Source of the DNA: Escherichia coli
Lineage (GTDB): Bacteria; Pseudomonadota; Gammaproteobacteria; Enterobacterales; Enterobacteriaceae
Reading direction: 5' to 3' (one strand)
Length of the DNA: 64,000 bases
Assembly: GCF_001677475.2 (NCBI RefSeq)
Contig: NZ_CP015229.1
Below the pieces are notes generated by a model, which was given only the letters and a program-made list of their open reading frames with translations, was not told the origin of the DNA and ran no database searches. Shown piece after piece: positions 40,314 through 40,700 of this stretch. The position numbers and the translations under genes are program-made. Position 1 is the first letter of the stretch; each line of letters opens with the position of its first letter.

Positions 40314-40700
40314 ATGCGTAAAAGCCTGTTAGCTATTCTTGCAGTCTCCTCGTTGGTATTCAGTTCGGCGTCGTTTGCCGCTGATCTTGAAGACAATATG
40401 GAAACCCTCAACGACACTTTAAAAGTGGTCGAAAAAGCCGATAACGCGGCGCAAGTCAAAGACGCGTTAACCAAAATGCGTGCCGCAGCGCTGGATGCGC
40501 AAAAAGCAACGCCGCCGAAGCTCGAAGGCAAATCACCGGACAGCCCGGAAATGAAAGATTTCCGCCACGGTTTCGACATTCTGGTCGGTCAGATTGACGA
40601 CGCGCTGAAGCTGGCAAATGAAGGTAAAGTAAAAGAAGCGCAGGCTGCCGCAGAGCAACTGAAAACGACCCGCAACGCCTATCACCAGAAGTATCGTTAA
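40314..40700 (+). CDS. cybC: Soluble cytochrome b562 (precursor with signal peptide), apparently intact
   Basis: 128-aa ORF with signal peptide then [12 protein letters not shown]...NAYHQKYR, a four-helix-bundle cytochrome b562. Confidence 0.88.

Follow-up and report, generated by a model that had tools for sequence, protein, structure and literature searches.

Intact cybC, the gene for soluble cytochrome b562, in an Escherichia coli chromosome and its 26-bp deletion in K-12

Introduction

In Escherichia coli K-12 MG1655 (NC_000913.3) the cytochrome b562 gene cybC (b4236, 4459488..4459855) is annotated as a pseudogene. A stretch of 64,000 nucleotides from another E. coli chromosome (contig NZ_CP015229.1), referred to here in its entirety as the window, carries at the same locus an open reading frame (ORF) that a first-pass annotation described as a complete gene, proposing that this strain had kept a functional allele. 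This raises two questions: whether the ORF is a normal-looking cytochrome b562 gene, and which of the two alleles, that of the window or that of K-12, departs from the rest of the species.

It has already been published that K-12 has cybC only as a cryptic gene or pseudogene and that CybC is made in other strains (PMC4361602, PMC3349551), and at this gene the contrast of K-12 with other E. coli is textbook-level knowledge. cybC is among the genes highly expressed in the B strain REL606 relative to MG1655 (PMC3446290), and the protein has been detected in proteomes of Shigella dysenteriae (PMC3136414). Among cydDC phenotypes, a typical one is that periplasmic b562 is lost (PMC4785604).

Results

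The cybC ORF listed for the window starts with an ATG and encodes 128 amino acids followed by a stop codon (Table 1). Its product matched Pfam family PF07361 (Cytochrom_B562) with 115.8 bits (E 1.6e-33; gathering score 30), covering positions 1-102 of the 102 in the profile, and the NCBIfam equivalog NF011632 ('cytochrome b562') with 191.9 bits over positions 1-127 of 127, the cut-off being 130. The match to the cytochrome b562 family is confirmed and lies far beyond chance. In an end-to-end alignment with PDB 9tmp_A, a 128-aa precursor of soluble cytochrome b562, 125 of the 128 residues were identical, and a scripted residue-by-residue comparison returned N35T, I39V and D72G as the only differences (N13T, I17V and D50G in mature numbering). 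The protein ends in RNAYHQKYR.

The mature chains of PDB entries 1apc, 1qpu and 256b (106 aa) match residues 23-128, and the signal-peptide boundary is therefore placed at Ala22/Ala23 (SFA/ADLED). Read from the translation, the signal peptide has an MRK n-region, an h-region and an SSASFA c-region with predicted cleavage at SFA/AD; residues 1-22 are those of the 9tmp_A precursor. The axial haem ligands of b562, known from its structures to be Met7 and His102 in mature numbering, correspond to Met29 and His124 of the precursor, and both are kept in the alignments to 9tmp_A and to 1apc/256b. Given an identity of at least 97% to solved structures over the full mature domain, the product would be expected to adopt the four-helix-bundle fold. 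Upstream, a putative Shine-Dalgarno-like motif was located by inspection, its GGA core separated from the ATG by 7 nt (40307-40313). The earlier description of a complete 128-aa precursor, composed of a signal peptide and a four-helix-bundle domain, is borne out by these comparisons.

Table 1. Features of the cybC locus; positions are those of the window.
Feature	Position	Strand	Basis or remark
pmbA (tldE)	38780..40132	+	upstream of cybC, same strand
Imperfect-palindrome dispersed intergenic repeat, ~127 bp	40160..40300	.	presence/absence among genomes, copy count, hairpin
Shine-Dalgarno-like AGGAAG	40303..40308	+	by inspection; putative
26 bp deleted in E. coli K-12	40307..40332	+	alignment with MG1655 and J53
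cybC CDS, precursor of soluble (periplasmic) cytochrome b562	40314..40700	+	ORF, PF07361, NF011632, 9tmp_A identity
Predicted Sec-type signal peptide, residues 1-22	40314..40379	+	mature PDB chain alignment; composition from translation
Met29 codon (Met7 mature), presumed axial haem ligand	40398..40400	+	conserved vs 9tmp_A/256b
His124 codon (His102 mature), presumed axial haem ligand	40683..40685	+	conserved vs 9tmp_A/256b
14-bp perfect stem-loop, cybC/nrdG gap	40709..40740	.	fold dG -23.3 kcal/mol, z -6.05
nrdG	40745..41209	-	downstream of cybC, convergent
nrdD	41395..43533	-	beyond nrdG

When MG1655 and J53, a K-12 derivative, were aligned to the window, both proved to lack the same 26 bp, GTGAGCAATGCGTAAAAGCCTGTTAG. 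The deletion takes out the spacer behind the Shine-Dalgarno motif, the ATG, codons 1-6 (MRKSLL) and one further base, the first of Ala codon 7, and its right-hand breakpoint is the exact start of the MG1655 pseudogene feature. On inspection of the alignment no microhomology was visible at the breakpoints. Because K-12 is without these 26 bp, start codon included, its allele is neither identical to that of the window nor intact; the first-pass annotation had taken the MG1655 copy to be a disrupted pseudogene, and both the database flag and the deletion agree with this. The window carries the 26 bp, and its cybC is thus not a pseudogene of the K-12 type. In other respects the two genes are alike, being orthologous loci between tldE/pmbA and nrdG that are approximately 97% identical over the shared sequence. 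K-12 differs in having N35, D72, S122 and K125, and the codon differences, counted by eye in the alignment, come to about 8 synonymous versus 4 non-synonymous.

The in-frame starts left in K-12 are a TTG, giving 115 aa, and an ATT 2 nt after GGAA. As read from the sequence, the signal peptide of either product would have lost its charged n-region and some of its hydrophobic core. The NCBI automatic pipeline, in annotating J53 and other K-12 derivatives, calls a 121-aa, ATT-initiated 'cytochrome b562' CDS. The same sequence therefore appears among our comparison loci both as a 121-aa CDS (L001, 1712-2077) and as a pseudogene (L002, 2489-2856, the curated MG1655 record), and this clash between the automatic call and the curated annotation is a practical point for the locus.

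The frequency of the two alleles was determined in a population set of 5426 complete E. coli genomes, with a 66-nt query centred on the 26 bp for the intact start and a 52-nt query across the K-12 junction for the deletion. Because the flanks of both queries are too short to seed alone, a match requires the diagnostic sequence itself. The intact start region was found in 5070 of the 5426 genomes and the deletion junction in 355, all of the latter at an identity of at least 99%. Their sum, 5425, equals the full number of genomes found to carry the cybC locus. When 60 junction records were sampled across the ranking, all 60 proved to be K-12 laboratory derivatives or K-12-sized, and the strains included MG1655, BW25113, DH5alpha, DH1, DH10B-type, C600, J53, MC4100, TG1, HMS174 and S17-1. 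From these counts, together with the K-12 sample, it follows that the deletion is a lesion of the K-12 lineage and the intact gene the wild type of the species. Intact cybC is the species norm, and only by comparison with K-12 does the window allele stand out.

We also considered whether S122 and K125 of the K-12 gene might represent decay after its inactivation. This was rejected. The sequence in question occurs in 820 genomes, and because 465 of these are non-K-12 genomes with an intact start, such as O157:H7, the two residues are not products of decay.

The chromosomal position of cybC is orthologous, the order pmbA-cybC-nrdG-nrdD being the usual one in E. coli. Between cybC and the convergent nrdG lies a 44-bp spacer containing a hairpin. 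This stem-loop was not called a terminator by a simple terminator scan and is without a T-run; it is probably a transcript-end hairpin shared by the two genes. Across 39900-41400 the same kind of scan found terminator-like sites to be no commoner than in shuffled sequence. In some E. coli genomes the cybC-nrdG gap holds a relB/relE-type toxin-antitoxin cassette (e.g. comparison locus L004, 3578-4100), and in one further locus (L009, 3578-3820) only the antitoxin gene of such a cassette was called; the spacer in the window is free of this insertion. A search of 38000-44000 against Rfam at E<=1 returned nothing in or beside cybC and only two sub-threshold matches to naRNA4. These REP-derived or REP-like matches lie at 38034-38112, one per strand, between mpl and yjgA, and their scores of 39.4 and 34.6 bits fall short of the gathering score, 59.5.

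On its 5′ side cybC is separated from pmbA by 181 nt, most of which is an imperfect palindrome of approximately 127 bp lying outside the gene. The palindrome is a member of a small family of dispersed repeats, of which an E. coli genome has a median of 3 copies; its resemblance to the ERIC primer sequences makes it a candidate ERIC/IRU-like element. Some genomes are without it, and their pmbA-cybC spacer is then 54 nt (comparison loci L003, L004 and L005).

This arrangement invites the reading that cybC, although its ORF is intact, is not transcribed, in that the repeat separates the gene from its promoter or ends read-through from upstream. The long hairpin that the repeat forms on folding is very stable (dG -59.8, z -6.5), the presence of the repeat varies among genomes, and a simple scan of 39900..41400 found no sigma-70-like promoter site. 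However, the scan is only a crude consensus match, and copies of the repeat at an identity of at least 90% occur in about 3880 of the 5426 complete genomes, presumably at the cybC locus; the repeat also stands upstream of cybC in K-12. Moreover, the ORF is without decay, its differences from K-12 being mostly synonymous. Silencing is disfavoured because the repeat arrangement is common together with a conserved intact ORF, and we regard a cryptic gene as very unlikely.

The hairpin that follows pmbA has a tail that is A-rich rather than T-rich on the + strand, and read-through from pmbA into cybC is therefore plausible. One might speculate, as a long shot, that the repeat, which many genomes have and others lack, acts as a strain-variable post-transcriptional switch, setting the yield of b562 from pmbA read-through by way of mRNA processing or stability. 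If so, expression of cybC would be polymorphic even among strains whose ORF is intact.

It is scarcely credible that CybC is expressed but impaired by N35T, I39V and D72G relative to the E. coli B reference protein since, against these three differences from 9tmp_A, both haem ligands are unchanged, V39 is also the residue in K-12 and in PDB 4er9, T35 and G72 occur in their codon contexts in 1173 and 560 complete E. coli genomes, respectively, and the exact 128-aa protein recurs in 825 blocks of a public assembly collection on diverse genomic backgrounds whose flanking DNA diverges by 2-5%. As judged from the alignments, the three substitutions avoid the haem ligands, and T35 and G72 appear to be common polymorphisms.

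Several other features of the window were recorded alongside. An IS21-family element (28674-31079; istA 28766-30265, istB 30262-31017) interrupts ytfQ, the gene for a galactofuranose-binding protein, so that this strain has a disrupted ytfQ; the two insertion junctions carry a duplication of TAAGTT. The chpS-chpB (chpSB) toxin-antitoxin pair, which K-12 carries at 4448397-4449048, is missing, about 144 bp standing in its place (window 27209-27353). At 1-6522, in the place of the K-12 sequence upstream of ytfA, there is a five-gene metabolic island that is absent in K-12, and its products are an FAD flavoprotein, a CoA-transferase, an enoyl-CoA hydratase, a sugar-phosphate isomerase/epimerase-like protein and a 3-ketoacyl-ACP-reductase-like SDR. 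The island was found in 3111 of the 5426 genomes, with a best identity of only 94.2%. For the 22 kb at 30000-52000 the best identity among the same 5426 complete genomes was about 97.6-97.7%, and the draft assembly GCA_019139975.1 is 99.98% identical to the window over 6.4 kb; these identities suggest a divergent Escherichia or Shigella lineage. At 56971-59867 (yjgL-argI-rraB in K-12) the identity to K-12 falls to 94.8%, from about 97.5% in the rest of the window, and a weak internal repeat lies at 57007-57202.

Discussion

In summary, the cybC gene of the window is intact by all of the sequence features that could be checked, and we put the probability that it is a wild-type, normal-looking E. 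coli gene encoding cytochrome b562, a periplasmic haem protein, at about 0.93. The proposal that the strain keeps a functional allele is supported to this extent, function being what the intact sequence would lead one to expect. What the first-pass annotation missed is the polarity of the difference: it is the deletion that is odd, the intact allele being wild type across the species.

From what is known of the family, the 128-aa precursor would be exported by the Sec pathway and cleaved after Ala22. The mature four-helix bundle of 106 residues would then bind a single haem b non-covalently in the periplasm, with Met7 and His102 as ligands, an insertion that would depend on the periplasmic redox poise, and would serve as a small, soluble carrier of one electron at a time.

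As a reference for cybC, K-12 is a poor choice, having lost 26 bp from a gene that is kept in essentially all other E. coli. The population count, 5070 versus 355, puts a number on the known difference between K-12 and the species.

The closest known system is E. coli soluble cytochrome b562 itself (PDB 256b and 1apc for the mature protein, 9tmp_A for the precursor), with which the window product shares the lengths of precursor and mature chain, an overall identity of 97.7%, an identical signal peptide and the same haem ligands, and from which it differs by the three substitutions alone. The BRIL fusion partner, too, derives from E. coli CybC. A more distant relative is PDB 4er9_A ('Soluble cytochrome b562'), probably from Salmonella enterica; it has the same architecture and length and aligns over its full length (E 7e-65), but differs from the window protein by about 19 substitutions over 128 residues. 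In its genomic context the window gene is like that of 5000-plus E. coli genomes in which the locus is annotated 'cybC: cytochrome b562'.
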